A DNA stretch of 64,000 bases, from NCBI GenBank assembly GCA_020241125.1, contig GCA_020241125.1_4708.1; one strand, given 5' to 3'. Below the pieces are notes generated by a model, which made no database searches, was not told the origin of the DNA, and worked only from the letters and a program-made list of their open reading frames with translations. How positions within the stretch are numbered: position 1 is the first letter of the stretch; the number at the start of each line of letters is the position of its first letter. The position numbers and the translations under genes are program-made. Positions 2,518 to 64,000 of the stretch are shown one piece after another. This stretch comes from a phage.

Positions 2518-2534
2518 GTAATATAGCCGTGAAA
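2518..2534 (-). promoter_or_regulatory. candidate phage early promoter (minus-strand TTTCACGGCTATATTAC)
   Basis: Exact 17-mer repeated at 15116-15132; contains TATATTAC; 32 nt upstream of the start at 2486. Confidence 0.45.
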
Positions 2535-4802: not shown

Positions 4803-6029
4803 CTACTTCGTTTTCGCCGTTATCGGCTGCGATACTGTAATCTCGACCCGATCGACATCGGTACGTTTAACGATGATAAGGCTGCGTTCATCACCGAATG
4901 GTTCTGAGATCTTACAAGCCTCTTTAAGATTTTCGAGAATCGTGCCATGGGGTTCAAACACCGCAAAACCGGAACTAGCGTCGATTCTTATTAAATATAC
5001 ACGCACATTGTTTACGGTAATGGTGTCATCCGTCTTGAACCCACAGCAGGAGGGTAGACAGAACTGACCATTAACGCAATTAGCTAAGTATGCCTCACCA
5101 CCGAACATTTCTATTAACGTCACCGGTTTAAATGTTTTCTCTGGGAAAGCATTATTAAGAATATCGTTTCCATTCACAAACCAGATCGTTACTTTATCTT
5201 CGGAATACGCTAGTCTGTATGGTTGGGTTGCGGACGCCTGCGCTTTATGCTGGTTAAATAACTTTGATTTTGTCGCAATCACAGCACGACCTTGGGCGTC
5301 AAAGTACAGAACTTCATACCCAACACATCCGATAAACACGCGACGGTTATTAAGTTCCGGAATTCTGACTACTAACGCATTACCATCTTCCGTCGGTGTA
5401 ATACCACGTAGGATGATAGATTCGTTGTTCAATGTTGAGTTGCTCACGATGACGCTTCGCATTACCGCTGGCGACACTATTTCATCTGCTGCAGGTTCAA
5501 GTTGCTCCGCTGTTACAGTCACGGATCTGTCTTCCTTTTCAACTGGCCAGTTGAAAAGGATTGTTTTATTAAGACAAACAATTGGGGTAATTTCGCCGAT
5601 ACTCCGTATCTTGACTGAGGGGCAATTGCACACATACGGAACAAAAACATCAATATCGTTGGTCGCTTCTTCAAGCATGCTAGCATACGCCATTGCTTCG
5701 GGACGATCGGTGAGATGAATAACAGCATAGACGATATCGTCTTTTAACCACGCACGTTTCACTCGTCCTATAACACGATTGATGTCTACAATAACTCTCT
5801 GAGCTTTCATCTCCCATTTTACTGCATCAGTACCACCCGCAACCACGTTCGGTTTATCCGTGTTTACACGATGAAGGAAACTATTGATTATTTCCTCATC
5901 GATCTGGATATCCTTTCTCGCAAAATTCAACAACGGAATAACGAACTCATTGTTACCGCACTTCTCTGCTCCGCGAATGATAGGAGTACACTTCTTGTTC
6001 TCATCTGATCCCCAGATAACTTTAGTCAT
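4803..6029 (-). CDS. hypothetical protein (408 aa)
   Basis: ORF 4803-6056 begins with GTG; ATG 6029 has AAGGAAA RBS; N-terminus MTKVIWGSDENKK; no phosphoesterase motifs seen. Confidence 0.65.
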   Translation of the reverse strand: MTKVIWGSDENKKCTPIIRGAEKCGNNEFVIPLLNFARKDIQIDEEIINSFLHRVNTDKPNVVAGGTDAVKWEMKAQRVIVDINRVIGRVKRAWLKDDIVYAVIHLTDRPEAMAYASMLEEATNDIDVFVPYVCNCPSVKIRSIGEITPIVCLNKTILFNWPVEKEDRSVTVTAEQLEPAADEIVSPAVMRSVIVSNSTLNNESIILRGITPTEDGNALVVRIPELNNRRVFIGCVGYEVLYFDAQGRAVIATKSKLFNQHKAQASATQPYRLAYSEDKVTIWFVNGNDILNNAFPEKTFKPVTLIEMFGGEAYLANCVNGQFCLPSCCGFKTDDTITVNNVRVYLIRIDASSGFAVFEPHGTILENLKEACKISEPFGDERSLIIVKRTDVDRVEITVSQPITAKTK

Positions 6030-13905: not shown

Positions 13906-14205
13906 TTAATGTTTAGGTTCCGTTTTGTGTTGTGCGAGTAATGTGTTGATCTGCTCCCGTTGTTCTTTTAAGCATGCAGGAAGCTGGTCTTCCCGTACCG
14001 TTCCGATTTCCAACGTGATGTACCAACGTTGTTCGGAAGCCTGCCATTGAAAACTGCTCTGTAACCTCAGGATGCTAGGATCACGTACCTTGCTTGCACT
14101 GTAACGGTTGAACCAATCCAGGTATGCTGCTTTCCCTTCCTCGTCAGCGATGTAACGCTGCACGCTGTTCTTCCCTTTGTTCTCGTATCCCGTTGCACGT
14201 ATCAT
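13906..14205 (-). CDS. hypothetical protein (about 100 aa)
   Basis: ORF 13906-14259; ATG 14205 overlaps the stop of the upstream gene as ATGA. Confidence 0.5.
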   Translation of the reverse strand: MIRATGYENKGKNSVQRYIADEEGKAAYLDWFNRYSASKVRDPSILRLQSSFQWQASEQRWYITLEIGTVREDQLPACLKEQREQINTLLAQHKTEPKH

Positions 14206-14984
14206 GCGAACGTTTCTCCTGTAATGTGTTGCGGATGGCGTAGCATGGTAGCATCCCATTGTACGATCTGGCTTCGGCTTACCCGCATCATGATGGATTC
14301 GTCATCAAGCCCCTGTTGCGCAACCGGCAACCAACGTTCCCCAAGCACCTTCGCTTCAACACGTTTCTTGCGTGGGTTGTAACGCACCTCGCTAACCCAA
14401 GCGAATCCAAGCGGATGGACTACCCGTGGATAAAACATGCGAAGCAATTGATGCATCCGATCCGTTGCCTCCAATTTGCCATCCACCATGTAAGGTTTCA
14501 CCATGGTAAGCTTTTTGGTGTAATACGTTCCAACGGTATGGTTACGCCAACTTGGCAAGGCATGATCCCCTTCTCTCAGTTTGCTATCCGAGTTCATTGA
14601 CCAGACCTGCTGTTTACCGGCCAGCATCGCGTACTGCCGATCAACGCAACGAACCCGATCGGCGAACAATGGATCCAGGACATCATCCACCGCGCCCTTA
14701 TTGCGATAACCGTGATGTACCACCAACCTGCTTGCGCTCATCGATGCGGGATGCTGGCTCTTATGCGCATACAGCCCTCCGTCACCGCGAGCGTCGTAAA
14801 GATAACCGCATGCGCCACGCCATATCACCTTGCCTACGGTTCTCTCGTCTTCAAGCAGCATCGTCGGCCCATCAAGCAAATTGGTGAACCACTGCACCTT
14901 CACGCATTCCGCTTGGACATGCTCAGGTAATGCCTGATACTCTTTTTGGGTGTATAAGGTATCAAAAATGATTTCTTCGTTCAT
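14202..14984 (-). CDS. hypothetical protein (260 aa), first gene of a leftward unit
   Basis: ATG 14984; promoter-like motifs at 15065-15078 and 15116-15132 lie upstream on the minus strand. Confidence 0.65.
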   Translation of the reverse strand: MNEEIIFDTLYTQKEYQALPEHVQAECVKVQWFTNLLDGPTMLLEDERTVGKVIWRGACGYLYDARGDGGLYAHKSQHPASMSASRLVVHHGYRNKGAVDDVLDPLFADRVRCVDRQYAMLAGKQQVWSMNSDSKLREGDHALPSWRNHTVGTYYTKKLTMVKPYMVDGKLEATDRMHQLLRMFYPRVVHPLGFAWVSEVRYNPRKKRVEAKVLGERWLPVAQQGLDDESIMMRVSRSQIVQWDATMLRHPQHITGETFA

Positions 14985-15064
14985 TTAAAAAGTTCCTCTG
15001 TTTCACGTTAATTAAACAACGTATTGATTTCTATTTGACAGAATACGAACATCGTACGTATCTA

Positions 15065-15078
15065 TCACTTAGGTAACG
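15065..15078 (-). promoter_or_regulatory. TTACCTARGTGA motif, degenerate copy
   Basis: TCACTTAGGTAACG resembles the exact 16-mer found at 43272-43287 and 51447-51462. Confidence 0.3.
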
Positions 15079-15115
15079 CTTACGCGTCGCGTTCATGATA
15101 CCATGCATCATGAAG

Positions 15116-15132
15116 GTAATATAGCCGTGAAA
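15116..15132 (-). promoter_or_regulatory. candidate phage early promoter, second exact copy
   Basis: Identical 17-mer GTAATATAGCCGTGAAA (plus strand) upstream of the leftward small-gene cluster. Confidence 0.45.
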
Positions 15133-15367
15133 GGATTTGTGTTAACGCAAGGGTTTTGTTTGTTTTTTAAGAAGGGATGGATTTAGAAGAGGTGTTTCAA
15201 GGAAGGTAAACGAGAATAGGTATTTTGATTTAAGTAAGATGTTATCTGTATCCGTTAGAAGTGTATTGTCTAAGTTATCTTGTTTATCTTAGGTTTAATC
15301 GTTTTTATCTTGGTATGTTTAAGTTGTTTTTATTTAACTGTTAAAATGCTTATCTTCAAAACAATGG

Positions 15368-15422
15368 ATAACATGTGTTTACTACGCTCGTTGAGTTATA
15401 ACTCAACGGTAACACATGTCAT
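15368..15422. repeat. nested palindrome
   Basis: Perfect 20-bp palindrome CGTTGAGTTATAACTCAACG (15389-15408) flanked by inverted arms AACATGTGTT and AACACATGT. Confidence 0.6.
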
Positions 15423-15811
15423 CTGTGCATTACACTACGTTACATGCTAGTTAAATCGGATAACTCAAAAAAACATTTGTGATACTCTTCTTCACGTTGT
15501 TCATCAGAGTATCTCGTCTATACTCATTGCATTCGTATACGACATAACCGTTACACGCTAACGCTACGCTTATAGCTTGATAACTCTAAGGATAAAAACA
15601 TAAACTCGCTTCGCTCGTTTAGTTTTTCTTTTTCTTAGAGTTATCCTGTTGCTCGTCTCTAAAGGACTTCGCTCCTCCCCCGTCCCCCGAAGGGGCCGAG
15701 GTCGTGGAAATTTTACTTTCCAAATACATTTACAACATCTGTAAACTTTTACTCCAGGTACTTAATCTTATCATTAGAAATTATAAAAGAGAAAATAAAC
15801 ACAAACATAAA

Positions 15812-15846
15812 CCTTCCCCCGACCCGTAAGGGAAGGAGGAAGGGAG
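15812..15846 (-). terminator. conserved hairpin, family copy 3
   Basis: CCTTCCCCCGACCC-GTAA-GGGAAGGAGGAAGGG, 9 nt 3' of the stop of 15855-16748. Confidence 0.65.
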
Positions 15847-15854
15847 AGATTAAA

Positions 15855-16748
15855 TTATTCGGAAACGTTATAACCGAATACTGCTTTACCGTAGGTGTGA
15901 GTACCGTCAGCTAACGACAGCACCAACACATGGTTGTATGTAGCGTTAACGCCTTTATCGGTAGACCCGGTGGTAGCACCGTTATAGACAAAGGTAGCTG
16001 TTTGCAGATTGGTTTTCAGTTCATTGATGATATCATCACTTACACCAGTCTGTTCTTTAATCAGGGTGGTCAGGTTACCCGCTAAGCCTGCATCGATCTT
16101 GGTATCGTTACTGGTAATAGCTTGTAAACCTGCGGTGTAAGTACTGAAGTCTAACGGATAGGTTAACAGACGTGCTGAGGTCTTGGTACCATCGCCTTCA
16201 TCAACGTAGGTTAAGTTACCCAGATTGGTAACCTTGATGATGTTAGCCAGATCCAGCGTGGTGTTATAAACTTTAACTTGAACAGAGCCATACCACGCCA
16301 ACGAATCTTCTTTGGCTTCCAGGGTGATCGTCTGGATACCATGCTGGTCGAAGGTAACCGGCGTAGCTAACGTTTCGGCTTTGATGTCTTTCGCTTTATC
16401 CAGGAACTTCTCACCGGAAGGCGTGATCATACCGTAGCGTTGAGCTACAAGGTCAACCACATCACCGATGGTGGTGTTCGCCTCAACGTTAACACGTACA
16501 GCGATCTTCTGGAACCACTTAGCCAGATCCAGACGATGGTAGGTGACATCTCGGTTATTGAAGTAAGGGGTACCTTCACCAGGACTAAGTGTTAAAGTTG
16601 CTTCTGGAGCAGAAGGATTCTTTTCTTTAAGGACGTATTTAAGGTCGGTATATTTAAAGCTGGCACCAGTGTCAGCGTTAAGCTGGTTGATCTCATCAAC
16701 GATAAGTTGCCAAGGTGTTTTTAAAGTAAGCGATACTTGAGCAGTCAT
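15855..16748 (-). CDS. abundant (codon-optimised) protein, member of a six-gene paralog family
   Basis: ORF 15855-17024; ATG 16748 with GAGGAA RBS; strong host-like codon bias; motifs YHRLDLAKWF and LAWYGSV shared with 27809-31428 genes; followed by conserved hairpin 15812-15846. Confidence 0.8.
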   Translation of the reverse strand: MTAQVSLTLKTPWQLIVDEINQLNADTGASFKYTDLKYVLKEKNPSAPEATLTLSPGEGTPYFNNRDVTYHRLDLAKWFQKIAVRVNVEANTTIGDVVDLVAQRYGMITPSGEKFLDKAKDIKAETLATPVTFDQHGIQTITLEAKEDSLAWYGSVQVKVYNTTLDLANIIKVTNLGNLTYVDEGDGTKTSARLLTYPLDFSTYTAGLQAITSNDTKIDAGLAGNLTTLIKEQTGVSDDIINELKTNLQTATFVYNGATTGSTDKGVNATYNHVLVLSLADGTHTYGKAVFGYNVSE

Positions 16749-16887
16749 TTTCTTCCTCGATAGTTGGTACATCACTCTCAAAAGATGTAAGTGTTTACAG
16801 AAATTAATATATTTTATATTAAATGTGAATATTATGGAGAACGACTCCGAATCTCCTTTTCGACCATCAAAATCAGAGGACACGAAC

Positions 16888-17433
16888 ATGTCTACTTTAG
16901 ACTTTAACAAAGCAGCGAAATCCCTTCTGCTTGATCTTATTAACACCAAAGCGACCCGCACATTGGCTGAAGAAGAACTGCAGTTCGGTACTCCGCAGGA
17001 ATCTTCCGAACATGAAAAGAACACCGTTATTCAGCTGGACGCGGCGGCTGAAGCAGCTAACCTGCAGGGTACTCAGCAGTTCTACTACGATCGTCTGGCT
17101 CTGTCTGACGTTTTCGCTGATGTAACTGGTGATGTTACTTTCGAACTGCCGCACGGTACTGACAGCATTCAGGCTTCTGAGCTGGTAAGCAAGCTGGTCA
17201 CCAAATTCGGTCTGGCTTCCCTGAATGGTGAAATCAGAGAAGAAACCTTCCAGCTGTCTGCCGGTACTGTTGGTGAGGTAATTCTGAATGCGATCGAGGG
17301 TGGCCTGGTATACACTGGTACTCTGCGAGTTGCCCTGACCTACGCACTGGCACCAAAAGACGAACTGGCAACCGTTCTGGCGAATAACGTAGCTGAAGGT
17401 TTCGAGAAACCGACCGTTAGCGTTGTTGGCTAA
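16888..17433 (+). CDS. abundant (codon-optimised) protein, paralog-family member
   Basis: ORF 16825-17433; ATG 16888 follows AGAGGA; strong codon bias; QFYYDRLALSDVF motif; divergent from 15855-16748. Confidence 0.75.
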   Translation: MSTLDFNKAAKSLLLDLINTKATRTLAEEELQFGTPQESSEHEKNTVIQLDAAAEAANLQGTQQFYYDRLALSDVFADVTGDVTFELPHGTDSIQASELVSKLVTKFGLASLNGEIREETFQLSAGTVGEVILNAIEGGLVYTGTLRVALTYALAPKDELATVLANNVAEGFEKPTVSVVG

Positions 17434-17632
17434 TAAGCACATAGAGCAATAGTATGGGTTTTGTACAGCTCGGCTATTGATCTTCTACAATTTGGTTGTA
17501 ACAATCTGCGTGGTTGCACGCTTATCTTTCTCATTGAACGCTTCGTATGAAGCGTGGTGTTGAAAGGGTTGTGGATCTCCTCAAGCGGCCAGGGACCCAG
17601 ACCAACCTGAATAAACACAAACACATGTTAAG

Positions 17633-17664
17633 CCCCTCCTCATCCGTTATTGGGTGGGGGGGGG
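17633..17664 (-). terminator. degenerate family-like hairpin with G9 tract
   Basis: CCCCTCCTCA ... TGGGTGGGGGGGGG with the same upstream context (AATAAACACAAACA) as copy 3; 3' of the endolysin gene. Confidence 0.35.
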
Positions 17665-17727
17665 TCTTATACGTCTTTATGCGTTCCGTTCGTTCTGGAG
17701 CGTTTTAGGACGGTTTATGATGGTGTT

Positions 17728-18363
17728 TTACTCAACACTGAACCCGTTCAAGATGATCGCTTCATAACGCTTACGTTCACGACGTTTGCGTGCCTGCCAA
17801 CCGTAGATGAATTTCTCATCTTTCTCACGACGTTCCGCTAATTCGATGTAATAGGTGCTCTGCATGTCCAGCATCGCATCGATGAGATAATCCTTACCGG
17901 TTGCACCACGCTTAGCGATGTAAGCGTCGAGCGCGCTTAACGTCGCAGGTCCCATCAAACCGTCGGCGTTGATATTCTTCCAGTACGTTTGTCGGTTGTT
18001 CATGACGTTCAGATAACGTTGGAGGTTCTTAACCGGGACGGTTTTGCCAGCATTGATACCCAGGTCAAAGAGACGGTCAGCTAAGAACACAGAACGTTTC
18101 ATGACTTCGTCAAGTTTCATCTTATCCCAGAAGTGGGTCTTGTAGATAAAGAACGCCATTTCCGTGGTAAGGTTACGCATGTTACCGTCCCAGCCGAATT
18201 TCGTTTTCAGCGTGGTTTTGTATTGATCGGCGAGTGTTTTCGTAATGCCGTGGTTCGTGATTCCACCCGAGTCATCGGGATCGTCGACGTAACCTGCTTC
18301 GATGCTGGTTTTATCGCGAATGATAAATTCGCACGTGAAATCTTTCTCAGTAATCTTAGCCAT
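17728..18363 (-). CDS. endolysin, GH108-like N-terminal domain plus PG_binding_3-like domain
   Basis: GYVDDPDDSGGITNHGIT matches the GH108 EGGYxxDPxDxGGxTxxGIT core; DGLMGPATLSAL matches the peptidoglycan-binding DGxxGxxTxxAL motif; GAGGAG RBS 6 nt before ATG 18363. Confidence 0.85.
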   Translation of the reverse strand: MAKITEKDFTCEFIIRDKTSIEAGYVDDPDDSGGITNHGITKTLADQYKTTLKTKFGWDGNMRNLTTEMAFFIYKTHFWDKMKLDEVMKRSVFLADRLFDLGINAGKTVPVKNLQRYLNVMNNRQTYWKNINADGLMGPATLSALDAYIAKRGATGKDYLIDAMLDMQSTYYIELAERREKDEKFIYGWQARKRRERKRYEAIILNGFSVE

Positions 18364-20551: not shown

Positions 20552-23149
20552 TTATAACGTGACTGTACCTAATTTGGTTGTCTTATTGAGATTAATGACT
20601 GAGATCTGGGTATCGCTGGTCGTGATGGTGCCGATATTAACGCGCTGTCCTTTATCATCCTCTTGCTTGTGGATGGTTAATTCCAGCTCTAACTGGTTAC
20701 CATTAGGAACAACGGAAACGTACCATGTTTTATTACCTGGTGAGCTATTATAGTCTTTTAGGTTATAATGGCCTTTAGGTAAGGTCATGGCCTTACCAGC
20801 AAACAAACATGAAATATCCTCGTTGATATAAACGTCGAAACCGGAAGAAGCGATGACTGTTGAGGCCATTATTCGAGACGCGACGATACCACGATTATAG
20901 TCGTCGATTGTGGTACCTATGACATTGAATACTTGCCCCCCGTTACCCATAATGGTCGATTCGCTAGTGTTTACGTAGCCGATACCCCAAGTCGGATGAA
21001 TGTTCCAGCGGTACCCACTGTTTTGTAAATATGTATACAAGTCTTCATAGGCCGCATTCACCCAACTACCATCACTTTTTCGTCCAGCCCTAAATTGGAA
21101 TGTATTGCTATTTCCAGATGTTCCTCGGCCAAGAGGGACATGTCCCGCCACTAACCAACCATCTGTACTTTGCATATACGCGAACGAACCGTACGCTCTG
21201 TTATCGGCCCAAATATTCACGGTATCAACACGTTCAACGTAGGCGATCACCTTTTGTACGCCGGTTATAGCGATCGAACCCTTGCGTGCCGACACACTAA
21301 CTTCAGCAATTACGACACCCATTTTCCGCTGGCTGCTGTTAAATCCCAATACAACCATTAAACACGGTGCGTTTGTTGTTTCTGGAGGAATCGTTATCGA
21401 TTGTTTCCAGTCGGTGATTCCGCTGAGTTTTGTTCCAGTATATGCGTTCCAGACGGTTTGTCCAGCCGATTTCAGATTCTGTTCAGAAATAGAAATGGCC
21501 TCGCCCTCAGGGATTAACGTGTCGTAATTGAGACCAATGTTGCTGGATAGACGAAGGTCGTTTAAGTAAGATCCGCTGAGTGTGACGTTACCGTTACGAT
21601 AAATTGTCAAGAATGGCGCAGCCAGGGAGTTTAATACCGTAAAGTTACTCGATGGCATGAAACCATAGACATCGATGCCATTACCGTGGTAATGGTAGTT
21701 TGTCCAACTACCTTGATAACTTACGGTACGTGCATCGTAGTGGCCTTGTCCAAGACCGCTGCTGGATAACGTGTATATCTTGGTTGCTGATAGAAATGCG
21801 AGATATCCATGCGCTGCCAGAGCTCCAACTACCCTGTCTTTTATCTTTAACCAAGCTGAAGTATACAACGTACTGTCGGGATTCATTTTGGCTATTTCAT
21901 CGTAAGCTGTGCCTGCGAAGTTTCCGATAGTGTACGTACGTATATCCGGCTGTCCGTTATTGTCGTTCTGTACAGCAATTACTTGCCCAGAATCATTGAT
22001 ATCGATATTACCGATACAGTTGTGAGCCCCCCACACCCAATATCCATCTTTATAATTGGATTCTCCTTGTGTAAATGTCGACGGTCCTCGCCACGCGATG
22101 CCGTTCGATTCGGCGTAGTAGGTAGCTTGTCCCGATCCTGGATTCATGGCGTATCTGTTATTGGTCGGGTCAAAATCGATGTAAAAATGATGCATTCCTT
22201 GACGTTGACGGTTGTCCCGATCATTTGTCCACCACGACGAACCGACCAGAATTCGCGCCTTACCATTTTTTACAGTGGACCATAAACGTATTGCGGCGCG
22301 CCAGACGATTTGACCGATCCCGTTGGACGGGAAACTATTCGTACTGATGCTGTTGCAGACAACGAGCTCGCTGCTGTTGTTTATTTGAGTCCCTTCAATT
22401 GTAACGCCGTTTATGTTAGTAATCAGTGTTGCCGATACACTACCCCCTGTAGGGGCGATAGAGGAACGTTGAACGGTGTAAATTTTTAGTGATAATTTAT
22501 AGCCGCTCCGAATAGCTATACCAATGTAAATAGTTCCATTAATTTCCCAACAACAAACATCGGGCATTGTTTCTTTGAAATCGGATAAAGCACCGTCGAT
22601 ATACATCGCAACGTGTTTGCTGGCGTCGAATGTGCCGTCCGTTAACGCGATGAACATTTTGGCATTATTACCGTTGATATCAGCCGCTAATCCGAGTAGT
22701 ATGTTGTTCTGATGACAGTAAATGGCTTTAGGCGCTAGATCCAACATAGCTGGTTGGTACTGTCGGCTTGTTGGTATTACGCTAGTAACTGCGCCATTTT
22801 GATCCGTTTTACAAATAACGTAATATACACCGTGTATGATGCTGTTTGTCGCTGACCTCAGTAGGACGATCGTCCCGTCAGATTCACGACATATACCGTA
22901 ATGACGATAGTCGGTGATTAAACCGATAGCGCCATCGGCCGAACCTTCGATTGCCAGAGGAAAATAACTTTGGTCCCCAACCTGTTCGATATCGGTTGCG
23001 CCGATATCGATGTATTTTTCCATCTCAGTGTTGAACTCAGCGGTACTGTAGGCACCGAGATCGCTCGCCTTTAGTCCCGTTGGGTTGTCACGACTGGCGA
23101 TACGTGTAGTAACGCTACTCACCAGTTCGCTGAACTTTTTCATTGCCAT
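20552..23149 (-). CDS. tail fibre or tailspike (865 aa)
   Basis: N-terminus MAMKKFSELVSSVTTRIASRDNP is shared with the two small downstream genes (adaptor-like); long beta-rich, G/N/S/T-rich body; GAGGTG RBS. Confidence 0.7.
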   Translation of the reverse strand: MAMKKFSELVSSVTTRIASRDNPTGLKASDLGAYSTAEFNTEMEKYIDIGATDIEQVGDQSYFPLAIEGSADGAIGLITDYRHYGICRESDGTIVLLRSATNSIIHGVYYVICKTDQNGAVTSVIPTSRQYQPAMLDLAPKAIYCHQNNILLGLAADINGNNAKMFIALTDGTFDASKHVAMYIDGALSDFKETMPDVCCWEINGTIYIGIAIRSGYKLSLKIYTVQRSSIAPTGGSVSATLITNINGVTIEGTQINNSSELVVCNSISTNSFPSNGIGQIVWRAAIRLWSTVKNGKARILVGSSWWTNDRDNRQRQGMHHFYIDFDPTNNRYAMNPGSGQATYYAESNGIAWRGPSTFTQGESNYKDGYWVWGAHNCIGNIDINDSGQVIAVQNDNNGQPDIRTYTIGNFAGTAYDEIAKMNPDSTLYTSAWLKIKDRVVGALAAHGYLAFLSATKIYTLSSSGLGQGHYDARTVSYQGSWTNYHYHGNGIDVYGFMPSSNFTVLNSLAAPFLTIYRNGNVTLSGSYLNDLRLSSNIGLNYDTLIPEGEAISISEQNLKSAGQTVWNAYTGTKLSGITDWKQSITIPPETTNAPCLMVVLGFNSSQRKMGVVIAEVSVSARKGSIAITGVQKVIAYVERVDTVNIWADNRAYGSFAYMQSTDGWLVAGHVPLGRGTSGNSNTFQFRAGRKSDGSWVNAAYEDLYTYLQNSGYRWNIHPTWGIGYVNTSESTIMGNGGQVFNVIGTTIDDYNRGIVASRIMASTVIASSGFDVYINEDISCLFAGKAMTLPKGHYNLKDYNSSPGNKTWYVSVVPNGNQLELELTIHKQEDDKGQRVNIGTITTSDTQISVINLNKTTKLGTVTL

Positions 23150-26372: not shown

Positions 26373-26476
26373 GATGCGCCCTTTACAAGTTGTTAGTAAG
26401 TATGGGATACCCTGGGGTATCCTGTGTTAACAGCGGTAAAATATTACTGTAACTATAAAATAAGGGGGCCTCTCCC

Positions 26477-45682: not shown

Positions 45683-45831
45683 TGAAAGTATCCTTTACAG
45701 AATTAACTTATATAAGTCGGTCGATAGACCATAGCGTACACGCGTGCATGCGCCACTATAGTATCAGTAAACACTTACCGTTATTGAGGTCGTGATACAA
45801 CACTAAAAATGCCGCATAACTTTTCCCTACG

Positions 45832-49554: not shown

Positions 49555-49629
49555 CGTTTTTACCTTTCTATGTTAGGTGGGTTGCGGATAGAAGAATCAA
49601 TGCATAGACTGATTTAAGTTTGTTAAGGT

Positions 49630-50532
49630 TTACTTAGTCTTCGAGTTACAAGGACTGACATGTTGTTGTACTCGTTGAATCGTATCGTAGTACGGGTTAG
49701 ATTGGTTGAACATGCTGTTGTGTGGATGATAGCCGTATGGCGCATTTTGCCTTGTTGATGAGAAACCTTGTTGAGAAGGACGATTTGAATTAACCGCGAG
49801 TACGTAGTAAACCAAATTTTGACGGTCGAACGTTCCTTCGTTTTTGAAGGTGTCGGCGTAGGTGTTTATCGCTGGAGCGAGTCTATCACCATCGGCGGTA
49901 ATAATTGTACCGTCTGGGTAAACTTCACGAACGACGCACCATGTTCCGATAAGAACGTCTTTGGGCGGCGTATTGCCGTATCCGGTTGTAACGGTAAGGT
50001 AAGTATCGAACCCTTCAGAACAACAAGGATGACGATAGATAGGTCCTGTCATTTCCGTTCTATCGGTATCGTCGCATTTCTCTATCGAGAGCGATGGTGT
50101 GTCGGTTTTGAAATTGTCAAATTCTTTCTTTAAGTCGATTACAGGTTCTTTCGTATAGTACTTCTTGATTGCTTTGACGTAAAGATCAGGAACGGTTGTC
50201 AGCATTCCGTTATACCTGATTCTCAGGTTTTCGAGTAATCCAAAGATACTCGCGCATGCTTGTTCGCGAGGTTTTGTAAGATAAGAGATCCCCCCAGGAA
50301 CGCTGGGATCTTTGAGAAAGAAGATTGCGTTATTGTCGTTGTGCAGTGCGTTGAAGAAAACGATTGATTCGATATATACGGAGCATAGGCTGTCGTTGGC
50401 GTCGTCAGATAACACCCAGATGCACTCATCGGTCGTCTTGTTTAAAAGTTCTGTTTTGTCCACCAAACGTTGTTTCATTGCGAGGAAATGTGCCTGTTGT
50501 TCAGCGGATAATTCACGATAAATAGTGGTCAT
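49630..50532 (-). CDS. hypothetical protein, tandem paralog of 50618-51391
   Basis: ORF 49630-50610; ATG 50532 with AAGGAG RBS; IYRHPCCSEGFDTYLTVTTGYG ... VREVYPDGTII aligns with IYIHPECHTTYDRYLTITGG ... IREIYPDGRIV. Confidence 0.7.
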   Translation of the reverse strand: MTTIYRELSAEQQAHFLAMKQRLVDKTELLNKTTDECIWVLSDDANDSLCSVYIESIVFFNALHNDNNAIFFLKDPSVPGGISYLTKPREQACASIFGLLENLRIRYNGMLTTVPDLYVKAIKKYYTKEPVIDLKKEFDNFKTDTPSLSIEKCDDTDRTEMTGPIYRHPCCSEGFDTYLTVTTGYGNTPPKDVLIGTWCVVREVYPDGTIITADGDRLAPAINTYADTFKNEGTFDRQNLVYYVLAVNSNRPSQQGFSSTRQNAPYGYHPHNSMFNQSNPYYDTIQRVQQHVSPCNSKTK

Positions 50533-50617
50533 GTTGAGCTCCTTGATTACGATAAGGATGATTGCGGTTTTGTGATGCTGGTAGGGCCCTAAACAAAGGA
50601 GCCCTACCAATATTGGG

Positions 50618-51391
50618 TTACTCAGGATCGGCGTAGAAATGGTGAGGATAGCCGGAGTACGATCCCGCGTTACCGGCTATGGATTCTTTCTGGGAATCGA
50701 CGACGAGCGCATAGAACTGTCGGGAATTTGTTAGCGTTGAGAAATAAGCGGAAAGGACTTTTTCATTCAACGCATCGCAAGGTAGACAGGTGCGACCGCA
50801 AAACGTCACGATACGGCCGTCGGGATAGATCTCACGAATCATTCTCCACTCACCGATATCCACTGGTGATGGCGCTGCTACACCACCTGTTATCGTTAAG
50901 TAACGATCGTACGTGGTATGGCATTCAGGATGAATATAGATCGGCTTGTTCGTTTCGACAGGTTCCGAAGTATCTCGACGACTAAGAAGCTCAACGACTT
51001 CAAGATAAATCGTTGGTAGATCGCGGAGAATACCGGTGCTACGACGTTTCTTTGTGATTCGCGGACGAATCTCGTTGAGAGCGTATTCGAGCTTACGTTC
51101 AGCTTCGTACGCATCGAGTTTTATCAGGCGACCCGGTTCATCGGAATGATCCTGAGTTACGTAAACGAAATACGCGTTGCCTTTTGCAGCGTGAAAGATT
51201 CGAGCGACCTTAAATGTTTCTACGGTACGATACCCAAGGCGCGATTGATTTTCCACAGGAGAAAATATCCAATGTCGTCCTTCGTCCGCCTCAACAATTT
51301 CGTTGAAACTATCCGTTTGTTCTGGGACCTGGTAGTCAGCCATTAATGTATCAAGAGCGTCGTCAGCCAGTTTGATGTAAATATCTGTCAT
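50618..51391 (-). CDS. hypothetical protein, tandem paralog of 49630-50532
   Basis: ORF 50618-51604; ATG 51391 with GAGGAT RBS; promoter-like motif and inverted repeat just upstream. Confidence 0.7.
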   Translation of the reverse strand: MTDIYIKLADDALDTLMADYQVPEQTDSFNEIVEADEGRHWIFSPVENQSRLGYRTVETFKVARIFHAAKGNAYFVYVTQDHSDEPGRLIKLDAYEAERKLEYALNEIRPRITKKRRSTGILRDLPTIYLEVVELLSRRDTSEPVETNKPIYIHPECHTTYDRYLTITGGVAAPSPVDIGEWRMIREIYPDGRIVTFCGRTCLPCDALNEKVLSAYFSTLTNSRQFYALVVDSQKESIAGNAGSYSGYPHHFYADPE

Positions 51392-51424
51392 GTTTGTATC
51401 CTCGGCTATTAAGAGAAATTTACA

Positions 51425-51462
51425 GTGATAACAGTAACCGTTGTTATCACCTAGGTAATGTA
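51425..51462 (-). promoter_or_regulatory. conserved 16-mer plus adjacent 9-bp inverted repeat
   Basis: GTGATAACA-n8-TGTTATCAC (51425-51450) overlapping TCACCTAGGTAATGTA (51447-51462); about 35-70 nt upstream of ATG 51391. Confidence 0.4.
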
Positions 51463-51495
51463 GTCGCGAAATAAACTGGGTTAGACAGTATATGA

Positions 51496-51527
51496 CCCTC
51501 TCCCAACCCGTAAGGGAAGGGAGAGGG
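51496..51527 (-). terminator. conserved hairpin, family copy 8
   Basis: CCCTCTCCC-AACCC-GTAA-GGG-AA-GGGAGAGGG, 5 nt 3' of the stop of 51532-52899. Confidence 0.7.
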
Positions 51528-51531
51528 AATA

Positions 51532-62770: not shown

Positions 62771-63922
62771 TTATGCTTTTTCGGTTACAGCGTCGAAGTA
62801 TTTCGCTGCAGCAAATACAGCATCCGCATATTGGCGTATCGAAGCGCGAAGAATCTTGGTTGACAATACAGTACTTAAGCGCGCCATTTCAGAAACCGCG
62901 CTTACATAAGGACGGATGGTTTCACGATCGGCTTCAGGCAGCTTGTCGAGCATATCACCCCACTTCGTTTTGATTTTCATGCCGTTGAGTTTAGCGGTAC
63001 GCTCCACAGAACCGGCCAAAGCTTCAACCATGTGGAAATAAGAGGAGTCTATCGTACGGAACACGTTAAGATAGGAAGTCAATGCACCTTTCAGTTCGTT
63101 ATCGTCTTTGAAAATGTTTGCGTTCTCTATCTCACCGGTCACCGTCGTCTCGGCTTCAACCCGAATATTTTTCACCAACGTATAGGCTTTAATCGCATCG
63201 TGTTCGTTTTCGACGGCGTCGAGACCTTGAATAACGAATTCCTTCCCACCGCTCTCTGGAAAAACAACTTTATTCAGAGCTGATTTGATCGCCAGCAGGT
63301 ATTTGTCTAAGATAGACGGAAGCAGTGTGAGGTCAGTGAGGTCTGCGACCTTTTTATTGATATCAGCCACATGCTTAAACAGTGAATCCGTCCCGCTTGC
63401 GCTTGCAGCGAGTTGTTCGATATGCTTGCTTGCAAACACGGCATTCGCTGATTTAGCATTAGGGAACATATTGACCATATTTCCAGTGGGCTTATCCAAC
63501 TGTTTGATATGGCGCTCACCTTTATTCACAGCGGTTGCGATCTTGACAATTTTGTTGTATGCAACGACCAGGTTCTTGAACAACATCTGGAACAGTTTGA
63601 ACAGTTGCTCAGCGATATTCGCAATGATTACCCAAACTGCGTATAACGCTTGTGCTGCGCGTTCTTTAAAGCCTTCCAGCACAATAGCTTGCCCTTCCAC
63701 CAAACGATCGTCAGCTTGGAACATGTCTTCATCGGACATCCCCAGGTTAGCCGCTGACGTCGAAGCAATCTGACGGATAAGGGCGATGTCGCTCGCACGT
63801 GCTTCAGGGATCGTAGGTGCGATCATGTACGCGGTATCTTCCAGCGTTGCTGAGGTACGCACCGCAATTTCAGCCAGTTCGCTGGATTCGTCGATCGTCT
63901 CGTCGGTGCGTCGAACCACCAA
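62771..63922 (-). CDS. hypothetical protein (383 aa; start uncertain)
   Basis: ORF track start is TTG; first ATG is at 63826; the upstream context runs toward the window edge. Confidence 0.65.
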   Translation of the reverse strand: MVVRRTDETIDESSELAEIAVRTSATLEDTAYMIAPTIPEARASDIALIRQIASTSAANLGMSDEDMFQADDRLVEGQAIVLEGFKERAAQALYAVWVIIANIAEQLFKLFQMLFKNLVVAYNKIVKIATAVNKGERHIKQLDKPTGNMVNMFPNAKSANAVFASKHIEQLAASASGTDSLFKHVADINKKVADLTDLTLLPSILDKYLLAIKSALNKVVFPESGGKEFVIQGLDAVENEHDAIKAYTLVKNIRVEAETTVTGEIENANIFKDDNELKGALTSYLNVFRTIDSSYFHMVEALAGSVERTAKLNGMKIKTKWGDMLDKLPEADRETIRPYVSAVSEMARLSTVLSTKILRASIRQYADAVFAAAKYFDAVTEKA

Positions 63923-64000
63923 CTCAACTTCGTCCTCTTCGATTTCTGCGTTGGGATCATTTTGCTCCGCTGGAATTGCCGCAAGAAGATCTTCGGCGCT

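Follow-up and report, generated by a model that had tools for sequence, protein, structure and literature searches.

Two genes that diverge from a short AT-rich stretch of phage DNA, both with strong codon bias, raise the question of what their products are and how both are transcribed from the region between them. The window, as the whole 64,000-nucleotide stretch analysed is called here, derives from a Goslar-like phage that is closely related to, but distinct from, the nucleus-forming jumbo phage Goslar of E. coli, with 92% nucleotide identity to Goslar over positions 15500-17700. Gene A (15855-16748, minus strand, 297 aa) and gene B (16888-17433, plus strand, 181 aa) encode the orthologues of Goslar gp22 (88.9% amino acid identity) and gp23 (88.8%), respectively, and match the Goslar gp022/gp023 annotation once an offset of +29 is applied. 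A preliminary description had placed both genes correctly, as each is an ATG-initiated reading frame preceded by a Shine-Dalgarno sequence (GAGGAAG at 16752-16758 on the minus strand for A; GAGGA at 16876-16880 on the plus strand for B). Longer reading frames opening at GTG codons (17024 for A and 16825 for B) were dismissed because homologues begin at the ATGs and the upstream DNA contains indels that are not multiples of three. The divergent long and short pair adjoining the endolysin gene is kept down to 50% identity. The neighbouring genes are fibre-like and endolysin genes, and neither tRNAs nor Rfam families at gathering score were found in the whole window. Taken as a whole, the reading developed below, namely that A and B are codon-adapted virion filament subunits orthologous to gp22 and gp23 and served by two back-to-back promoters of the non-virion RNA polymerase in the spacer, is probable (roughly 80%).

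Both proteins belong to the DUF7941 family (PF25613, gathering threshold 27 bits). Gene A encodes a full-length member with an N-terminal domain, linker and C-terminal domain (177.3 bits, E 5.7e-52, profile positions 4-275 of 276), while gene B encodes a short one with the N-terminal domain and linker only (70 bits, E 3.1e-19, positions 4-174 of 276). The window’s gp31-, gp33- and gp34-like genes likewise exceed the gathering threshold. Direct BLASTP comparison of A with B gave no significant similarity (E 0.098), and the predicted paralogy rests on the family model. The claim that A and B share a family holds, as both exceed the PF25613 gathering score and alignment of small profiles with hhalign gave E 1.7e-4. 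The two motifs that had been assigned to both proteins are each found in one of them: YxDRLxL occurs in B (YYDRLAL, residues 66-72) and is absent from A, where the homologous position reads YHRLDL, and LAWxGSV occurs in A (residues 150-156) and is absent from B, which has LVYTGTL. Fold comparison against the PDB covered the AF2 model of A (pLDDT 79), whose sole match with E <0.001 was the N-terminal domain of phiKZ gp127 (9xqd_0; E 1e-6, probability 1.00, TM 0.64 normalised by target length). A phmmer search also matched phiKZ gp127 (PDB 9xqd). Across 50,697 phage records, tblastn found family matches in jumbo phages only, with hosts including Pseudomonas, Erwinia, Salmonella, Serratia, Xanthomonas, Klebsiella and similar genera. 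DUF7941 has been described as exclusive to chimalliviruses, and other members bear carbohydrate-binding, glycoside-hydrolase or LRR domains (bioRxiv 10.64898/2026.04.21.720040).

Codon usage was compared with that of 31 E. coli K-12 ribosomal-protein, elongation-factor and rpoA genes, which supplied the weights for the codon adaptation index (CAI; reference-set mean 0.682, minimum 0.548). Gene B (0.697) and gene A (0.550) rank second and third of the 54 window genes (median 0.379, sd 0.090), behind the major capsid gene (0.811). The strong host-like bias proposed for the pair is therefore borne out for B, which equals the reference-set mean, while that of A is moderate, at the bottom of the reference-set range. 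The effective number of codons (Nc) is 34 for B and 45 for A. Genome-wide in Goslar, the gp23/gp22 pair ranks 3 and 8 of 246, and the most codon-adapted genes (major capsid protein, gp58, gp23, gp214 and nuclear shell protein) largely encode its most abundant proteins. Virion mass spectrometry of Goslar estimated ~2140 copies of gp23 and ~580 of gp22, which are among its most abundant virion proteins and were described as DUF7941 paralogues (bioRxiv 10.64898/2026.04.21.720040). The suggestion of very high expression and an abundant structural role is thus supported by these published copy numbers, with which the CAI ranking agrees. It was also already known: that such proteins are abundant in the virion, and that their codon bias reflects this, is ordinary for this phage group. 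Each virion would contain A and B in hundreds to thousands of copies, and the strong adaptation of both genes to E. coli codons would follow because so many copies are needed.

It is very improbable that the codon bias arose from base composition or recent transfer instead of from selection on expression. Nothing specific favours such an origin, although the reference set is host-derived, so a quirk of G+C or amino acid content could contribute. Against it, the GC3 of Goslar gp22 and gp23 (0.49 and 0.51) resembles that of listed genes with much lower CAI, Nc is low in both window genes, and the genome-wide CAI rank follows measured virion copy number. In addition, a CAI of 0.64-0.76 is retained in B alleles with just 39-52% protein identity, and the restriction of the family to jumbo phages, and by description to chimalliviruses, speaks against such an origin too.

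For the Goslar orthologues, earlier work established virion abundance and also filament formation by gp22, which was seen as filaments in negative-stain EM. AlphaFold models gave head-to-tail dimers, and a baseplate-anchored “fibre cloud” of gp22 and gp23 was proposed (bioRxiv 10.64898/2026.04.21.720040). On present evidence, A and B would likewise polymerise head to tail, forming flexible filaments that would be attached to the peripheral baseplate and are proposed to aid host finding. The linker of A (residues 161-200) is predicted to be ‘disordered’ (pLDDT 50-64), yet it is the most conserved stretch of the protein, which may indirectly support head-to-tail polymerisation of A. We infer the place of A and B on the virion from phiKZ gp127, which, within the outer peripheral baseplate, is found where the gp139 band ends (PMC13250141) and whose positional equivalents here are gp31, gp33 and gp34. 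Neither gp22 nor gp23 has density in the cryo-EM maps of Goslar (bioRxiv 10.64898/2026.04.21.720040). The PHROGs category of the family is ‘head and packaging’, which counts against a baseplate placement.

That category would fit a place for A and B inside the head, packaged alongside the DNA as internal or ejected proteins in the manner of gp53-gp58 (PF12699), as would the lack of assigned cryo-EM density in Goslar, the resemblance of the ~2140 copies to the ejected protein gp58 (bioRxiv 10.64898/2026.04.21.720040) and the similar CAI of B and gp58. However, the only relative with a solved structure, phiKZ gp127, is located in the outer peripheral baseplate, gp22 assembles into long filaments when purified (bioRxiv 10.64898/2026.04.21.720040), family members carry carbohydrate-binding, glycoside-hydrolase or LRR domains, and the neighbouring genes are fibre-like and endolysin genes. 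The variable centre, conserved ends and fast evolution of the proteins further suggest an exposed surface, making an internal location unlikely.

Both A and B, and B most of all, are far more variable between Goslar-like phages than the capsid protein. Relative to Goslar, dN is 0.06-0.07 for A and B and about 0.005 for most neighbouring genes, placing the pair among the more diverged genes of the window. The gp23-like subunit exists as two allele classes that are ~50% identical in otherwise near-identical phages, whereas capsid proteins are >90% identical. The B protein is conserved towards its two ends (residues 11-50 and 161-175) and variable in between, at residues 81-140. Such hypervariability in an abundant filament subunit suggests diversifying selection on an exposed virion ‘cloud’.

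The shared control region was confirmed as short and AT-rich, comprising 139 bp (16749-16887) with 33% GC versus 47% in the window. Across the window, Goslar and the relatives L008 and L010, this spacer is more conserved than the coding sequence of B, and its core blocks are retained in a clade at 77-84% identity. Upstream of gene B, the plus strand carries TATG at 16833-16836, matching the phiKZ late-promoter consensus T(-3)ATG(+1) (PMC7598289, PMC4666361), with a predicted start at G16836 and a 52-nt leader. Both the presence and the conservation of this motif were tested: seven of the eight aligned genomes retain TATGG together with the leader, and in the far relative L014 a TATG precedes the ATG by 48 nt. 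TATG is absent from the minus strand of the window’s spacer, where the candidate initiator for gene A is TCTGTAAA (16794-16801), which consists of CTGTAAA plus one base and would give a start at G16798 and a 50-nt leader. At the A-sense initiator position, the window, Goslar, L008 and L010 have TCTG, and L014 to L017 (four of eight genomes) have TATG. All eight genomes, representing three clades, carry T(C/A)TG with a GTAA..TTAC hairpin after it, 50-58 nt ahead of the ATG of A. The TCTGTAAA sequence is intergenic at 6 of its 16 occurrences in Goslar, versus 1.0 expected. In phiKZ, any single substitution in TATG severely cuts in vitro transcription (PMC4666361), and the TCTG of the window’s clade may therefore be weak, be read by another form of the polymerase or be no start at all.

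Folding also predicts a hairpin at the 5′ end of the B mRNA (16836-16856, plus strand; GGAGA...UCUCC, with the inner option GGAG-aacga-CUCC). An A3-to-G change in the L015-17 clade retains the pair as G-U, and at the matching place L014 carries a 6-bp hairpin of unrelated sequence (GAUUGG..CCAAUC). Hairpins beginning at +1 to +3 occur at 32% of sense-oriented intergenic TATG sites versus 17% of other TATG sites (Fisher P 0.0015), a modest effect in a test devised after examples had been seen. Many intergenic TATGs are terminator tails (TTTATG), which confound motif-based TATG calls. For the phiKZ late promoter P119L, downstream sequence is known to be important (PMC4666361).

From these features we infer the start sites and the roles of the hairpins. 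The spacer most likely holds two back-to-back promoters for the phage’s non-virion RNA polymerase, with predicted starts 38 bp apart that flank a 37-bp tract of 8% GC (16799-16835) containing the palindrome TTAATATA-N3-TATATTAA (16804-16822). The AT-richness of this tract is conserved, while its length and palindrome are not (L008 has a 7-nt insertion). Gene B would start at the phiKZ-type TATG and gene A at the TCTG inside CTGTAAA. Each mRNA would then have a short 5′ hairpin, a leader of ~50 nt, a good ribosome-binding site and a terminator at its end, and A and B would each form their own small transcription unit. No transcription start map for Goslar-like phages was found in the literature searched. 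The proposed back-to-back promoters, the membership of CTGTAAA in a larger dyad and the variability of A and B are new here, as read from sequence comparison.

The ends of both units show terminator-like sequences. A scan identified an intrinsic terminator for gene A at 15802-15836 on the minus strand, where a CCTTCCC..GGGGGAAGG hairpin is followed by a TTTATGTTTG tail (fold -21.9 kcal/mol, z -3.7). Its CCTTCCCTTACGGGTCGGGGGAAGG then TTTATG fits the phiKZ-type motif, which consists of a C-rich/G-rich stem-loop and a TTAT(G/T) tail (PMC10914365). Downstream of gene B, a terminator-like hairpin GCGTGGTTGCACGC with a TTATCTTTCT tail that includes TTAT was found at 17508-17531 on the plus strand. 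This assignment is weaker than that for gene A because the fold is no better than that of shuffled sequences.

The CTGTAAA element noted in the preliminary description is present in the spacer (16794-16800, minus strand) but is not a unit of its own, forming instead one arm of an enriched larger dyad, GTAA-N4-TTAC. This dyad is GTAAGTGTTTAC at 16787-16798 and reads GUAAacacUUAC on the minus strand. The GTAA-N4-TTAC class occurs seven times in the window versus 1.2 +/- 1.1 expected (0 of 100 shuffles reach seven), and 10 of its 16 Goslar sites are intergenic. The window and the entire Goslar genome each contain just two copies of the exact 12-mer, with the second copy upstream of the major capsid gene, a region that is essentially identical in all close relatives retrieved. 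Among relatives, the arms of the dyad are conserved around a centre of GTGT, GTAT or GACT. As a stand-alone repeated signal, CTGTAAA is unenriched in the window (12 versus 8.3 +/- 2.8 expected), and its copy by the capsid start codon is part of a ribosome-binding region, TGTAAAGGA, which is also found at gp58.

Alternatively, the dyad could serve neither as a start site nor as a 5′ hairpin. It might instead bind a dimeric phage regulator as an operator, or be the Goslar counterpart of AAanTTACc, the phiKZ middle-promoter element that is centred ~24 nt upstream of the start (PMC4666361). On this view it would control A, B and the capsid promoter together, with transcription of A beginning further downstream, perhaps at TGATG (G 16770), which lies 17 nt downstream of the A-sense dyad and is not conserved in the L015-17 clade. 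In the A sense the dyad reads ACACTTACA, one or two mismatches from the phiKZ motif, and several instances contain AAnnTTAC, like that motif (PMC4666361). Conserved arms around a varying centre in all relatives are the usual signature of a protein-binding dyad, and the stem shows no compensatory change. At the B and capsid promoters alike, TATGG follows the exact 12-mer at a distance of 33-34 nt. A relative whose capsid protein is 71% identical keeps a TGTAA-N4-TTACA dyad upstream of its capsid gene, and N4 is the only spacing enriched in intergenic DNA. However, the distance from dyad to TATGG varies (41 nt in L008 versus 33-34 nt elsewhere), and the 7-nt insertion in L008 weakens any model in which an activator acts from the 12-mer at a fixed distance. 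The order is reversed in the gp29/gp30 spacer, with TATGG upstream of the dyad. L014 has arms 9 nt apart that nevertheless fold into a hairpin immediately following TATG, and two further clades have a canonical TATG overlapping the dyad precisely where A is proposed to start. Enrichment of AAnnTTAC[CT] in intergenic DNA is only weak (P 0.026). An operator or middle element is thus possible but doubtful.

Two further polymerases were considered in place of the non-virion enzyme: the virion RNA polymerase, acting at an early promoter, or the host sigma-70 polymerase could drive A, B or both from the AT-rich spacer. The palindrome places TATATTAA, which matches 7 of 8 bases of the early-promoter core TATATTAC, on both strands. 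This core itself occurs in the window at 2518-2529 and 15116-15127, early motifs of this kind are found at Goslar gp214 and the nuclear shell gene, and 175 of 249 Goslar genes were detected as early as 5 min after infection. Against this, neither the palindrome nor the TATATTA core is retained in Goslar, L008 or the L015-17 clade, and a scan of the spacer returned no sigma-70-like site, with the regional count equal to chance. Either polymerase is therefore an improbable source of these transcripts.

The preferred account, in which the non-virion polymerase starts both transcripts, has wider implications if extended to other Goslar-like promoters. These may be marked by TATG plus an inverted repeat or 5′ hairpin starting at +1, and a second, oriented class, TC(T/A)G-TAAA-NN-TTTAC, may exist that contains the CTGTAAA element. 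The joint proposal of an inverted repeat from +1 beside TATG, this second class and diversifying selection on the cloud is tentative. If it is true, the A/B spacer would exemplify a minimal 38-bp bidirectional promoter and could bear on how a short phiKZ-like consensus gives promoter specificity and on the importance of downstream sequence. The conserved initiator with its hairpin and the GTAA-N4-TTAC dyad offer concrete elements for mutational testing of promoter choice with a four-base motif. Similarly, the variability of the gp23-like protein against a nearly invariant capsid provides a testable clue to the interaction partner of the proposed fibre cloud.

Among known systems, the closest is Goslar itself, whose gp22/gp23 (HOV27_gp022 and HOV27_gp023; 89% protein and about 91% nucleotide identity) have equal lengths, the same divergent layout, identical neighbours and a spacer ~94% identical to that of the window, although the start of gene B differs from that of gp23 by one extra residue. 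In phiKZ, gp127 and gp126 also form a long (290 aa) and short (147 aa) pair of one family, the N-terminal domain fold matches that of A, and head-to-tail pairing is predicted, as for the Goslar proteins (bioRxiv 10.64898/2026.04.21.720040). However, identity to A and B is just ~19-25%, the phiKZ genes are in tandem on one strand adjoining the wedge gene gp128 whereas A and B diverge, and it is gp31, gp33 and gp34, rather than gp22/gp23, that occupy the equivalent position in this genome. One gp127 is modelled per star lobe, compared with thousands of copies of Goslar gp23. The phiKZ late promoters, such as P119L, resemble that of gene B in their conserved TATG with G as +1, and resemble the spacer as a whole in having no conserved -10/-35 elements. 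They differ from gene A of the window’s clade, which has TCTG, and the hairpin or inverted repeat from +1 proposed here has not been described for phiKZ. Finally, flagellin and type IV pilin offer an analogy drawn from the conservation pattern alone, as they share no homology with A and B and differ in fold and assembly. They too are polymer subunits present in very large numbers, and their conserved terminal contact segments around a hypervariable exposed middle resemble the pattern of conservation in gene B.

The region 15500-17700 aligned over its full length with Escherichia phage vB_EcoM_Goslar at 92% identity, and no other phage record matching at that level was found. Goslar belongs to the phiKZ-like group and forms a nucleus, as a jumbo phage of that kind. 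The window keeps the Goslar gene order from gp1 to gp56 (offset about +29 at the locus studied here), and most proteins are 96-100% identical to their Goslar counterparts, which argues that the window phage is a close relative of Goslar, distinct from Goslar itself. Goslar-like genomes (236-249 kb) recur across many sequencing runs and in assemblies that carry the label Salmonella enterica, Shigella flexneri or E. coli; this is a common group of phages that infect or accompany several enteric genera.

The preliminary description had placed a divergent gene pair at this locus, and both genes stood up to analysis: gene A (15855-16748, minus strand, 297 aa) and gene B (16888-17433, plus strand, 181 aa) each have an ATG start and a Shine-Dalgarno site and are orthologous to Goslar gp22 (88.9% protein identity) and gp23 (88.8%), respectively. 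The host-like codon bias attributed to them was likewise borne out, with codon adaptation indices (CAI) of 0.697 for gene B and 0.550 for gene A against a window median of 0.379 (sd 0.090, n = 54 genes), using weights from 31 E. coli K-12 genes (ribosomal-protein, elongation-factor and rpoA) under which cryptic gsp genes, as a control, scored 0.24-0.40. The major capsid gene (0.811) was the sole window gene above the pair. Among 246 mechanically called Goslar ORFs, gp23 ranked 3rd and gp22 8th, the top five being the capsid protein, gp58, gp23, gp214 and the nuclear shell protein, and CAI was high in every gene B allele (0.64-0.76).

Both proteins passed the Pfam threshold for DUF7941, in agreement with the claim of a single family, protein A spanning the whole model and protein B its N-terminal two thirds only. 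The motifs quoted as common to them (YxDRLxL and LAWxGSV) are not shared, as each occurs in one protein only and the counterpart positions read YHRLDL and LVYTGTL. In Goslar, gp22 and gp23 have been named DUF7941 paralogues, and label-free mass spectrometry of the virion gave ~2140 copies of gp23 and ~580 of gp22 (bioRxiv 10.64898/2026.04.21.720040). Virion proteomics, proposed earlier as a check on whether both are abundant structural proteins, has thus already been done on the orthologues and is supportive, so that the original observation is confirmed and its interpretation supported. As the Goslar work had already established both as abundant virion proteins and as paralogues within a single family, the finding is of modest interest in this respect; what is new, from sequence comparison, is the predicted promoter architecture, along with the dyad motif and the hypervariability described below.

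The divergent pair beside the endolysin gene was kept in all relatives retrieved, down to 50% identity. Both proteins are fast-evolving for such abundance: dN relative to Goslar was 0.060 for A and 0.068 for B (dN/dS about 0.28), compared with values near 0.005 for most neighbours and 0.001 for the capsid protein. Orthologues of gp22 in public assemblies range from 49 to 94% identity and give about 60 clusters when grouped at 90%, and those of gp23 fall into two allele classes (74-99% and 44-54% identity), while capsid proteins of close Goslar relatives form one 90% cluster of 249 members. In one phage, gp23 is 52% identical despite a capsid protein at 99% and an endolysin at 100%. Variation in protein B is concentrated in residues 81-140, with residues 11-50 and 161-175 conserved, and the most conserved stretch of protein A is a linker (residues 161-200) modelled with low confidence in the monomer, a pattern that fits a linker serving as subunit-subunit interface and an exposed globular surface.

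The adjacent gp24-like endolysin gene (17728-18363) also has a high CAI (0.51); relative to Goslar its dS is 0.81 and its dN only 0.05, and yet another Goslar-like contig encodes a 100% identical protein, a pattern pointing to probable recombination breakpoints around the A/B locus. Genes resembling gp9, gp21, gp26 and gp56 (4803-6029, 14202-14984, 20552-23149 and 62774-64000) share 60-78% identity with Goslar beside neighbours at 96-100%, and are further variable cassettes of a mosaic genome; a Pfam search of the first three proteins gave no match. About 2 kb (49555-51531) is present in the window and absent from Goslar; in this part of the window two mutually similar minus-strand ORFs of ~300 aa each replace Goslar gp47 (62 aa), the match to which is limited to a 35-residue remnant.

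The spacer shared by the two genes (16749-16887) is AT-rich, as had been described (139 bp, 33% GC), and was aligned across eight genomes: the window, Goslar, two IMG/VR contigs, three with gp22 at 77-84% identity and one at 50%. On the gene B side, (C/T)TATGG and ~45 nt downstream are almost invariant in seven of the eight, the TATGG and leader being conserved even with protein B only 50% identical. In phiKZ, the late promoters of the non-virion RNA polymerase have the consensus TATG, whose G is +1 (PMC7598289, PMC4666361, PMC12809450). The predicted gene B transcript begins with a hairpin (computed fold), in which an A-to-G change in one clade retains the pair as G-U; in the 50% relative, a TATG 48 nt 5' of the gene B ATG is followed by an unrelated 6-bp hairpin in the same place.

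For gene A, the minus-strand sequence is TCTGTAAACACTTAC in the window clade; the 77-84% clade has TATGTAAAGTCTTAC and the 50% relative has TATGTAATGTTAAACGTTAC. In every case the element lies 50-58 nt 5' of the ATG and its G opens a GUAA..UUAC hairpin, making it likely that the CTGTAAA noted previously (16794-16800) belongs to the predicted start region of gene A. The window clade has a non-canonical C at -2, and the equivalent change in a phiKZ late promoter would cripple activity in vitro (PMC4666361). A distance of 38 bp separates the predicted starts, the intervening 37 bp having 8% GC, and each gene has its own terminator-like hairpin, that of gene A being strong and of phiKZ type. Many intrinsic terminators across Goslar end in TTTATG(C), as at 15802-15811 in the window, so that the late-promoter tetramer TATG forms part of terminator tails, which would mean either coupling of termination to re-initiation or false promoter calls.

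CTGTAAA overlaps a dyad, GTAA-N4-TTAC (16787-16798), whose exact 12-mer GTAAGTGTTTAC has only two copies in the window and, likewise, only two across Goslar. The second window copy (45767-45778) lies in the minus-strand region upstream of the major capsid gene (45683-45831), 33 nt 5' of a TATGG followed by the hairpin GGTCTATCGACC, and this region has the same building blocks as the A/B spacer. Its TC(A)GTAAA is oriented toward gp42 (antisense) and the helicase gene, in the direction opposite to the capsid gene. Where a relative has 71% capsid-protein identity, the dyad reads TGTAAAAATTTACA, the post-initiator hairpin is maintained by compensatory changes (GGUCuaucGACC to GGUCCauuGGGCC) and the proximal TATG position reads CTAG; a further TTATGCGG, 133 nt 5' of the capsid ATG, is also kept there. 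Across Goslar, 10 of 16 dyad sites are intergenic, intergenic sequence being 6.25% of the genome, and N3, N5 and N6 spacings of the same arms showed no intergenic bias in that genome; the window holds seven sites against 1.2 expected. On an alternative reading, the dyad might be an operator or might correspond to the middle-promoter element AAanTTACc of phiKZ (PMC4666361). The flanks of the dyad gave the oriented consensus TC(T/A)G-TAAA-NN-TTTAC, and TCTGTAAA is intergenic in 6 of 16 occurrences (1.0 expected).

Hairpins starting at +1 to +3 follow 22 of 68 gene-facing intergenic TATGs in Goslar versus 203 of 1225 others (Fisher P 0.0015). As the test was framed after examples had been seen, and as terminator tails account for many intergenic TATGs, this enrichment is treated as no more than a lead. 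Both element types also occur face to face in the divergent spacer between the gp29-like and gp30-like genes (26373-26476), with TATGG and an 8-bp hairpin for the plus-strand gene and CAGTAATATTTTAC for the minus-strand fibre-like gene, and the predicted transcripts would have overlapping 5' ends.

The 870 bp that separate gene A from the gp21-like gene (14985-15854, about 37% GC) hold no credible gene, are conserved in relatives and gave no match in Rfam and tRNA searches. This stretch contains an exact early-promoter-like CGGCTATATTAC facing gp21 (15116-15127, minus strand), a second TCTGTAAACTTTTAC directed toward the 3' terminus of gene A (15738-15752, plus strand) and a C-rich/G-rich hairpin near 15672-15702, and may be a source of small or antisense RNA. 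The motif (C/T)TATATTAC(C/T)T, which resembles the AT-rich early-promoter consensus of phiKZ, is found 5' of gp4, gp21, the nuclear shell gene, gp159 and gp214 (window 2518-2529 and 15116-15127, minus strand; Goslar 142 kb, 173 kb and 202 kb). As gp214 additionally has a late-type CTATG and hairpin, it may be expressed in both phases.

Protein A matched phiKZ gp127 (PDB 9xqd) by sequence (E 6e-7), and the gp127 chain of 9xqd was the sole significant PDB structural match to its AlphaFold2 model (pLDDT 79; E 1e-6). The phiKZ protein is located in the outer peripheral baseplate, where it caps the gp139 band (PMC13250141). Purified Goslar gp22 forms filaments several hundred nanometres in length by negative-stain EM, and head-to-tail polymers have been proposed to constitute a 'fibre cloud' on the peripheral baseplate (bioRxiv 10.64898/2026.04.21.720040). 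The window encodes three additional DUF7941 members, the gp31-, gp33- and gp34-like genes, which lie on either side of a DUF7208 gene and whose CAI is ordinary (0.33-0.46). The phiKZ genes for gp127 and gp126 are in tandem and adjoin the wedge gene gp128, a position occupied in the window genome by the gp34-, gp33- and gp31-like genes, so that the A/B pair is an extra long-plus-short pair, differing from the phiKZ arrangement in its location, its divergent transcription and its far higher codon adaptation.
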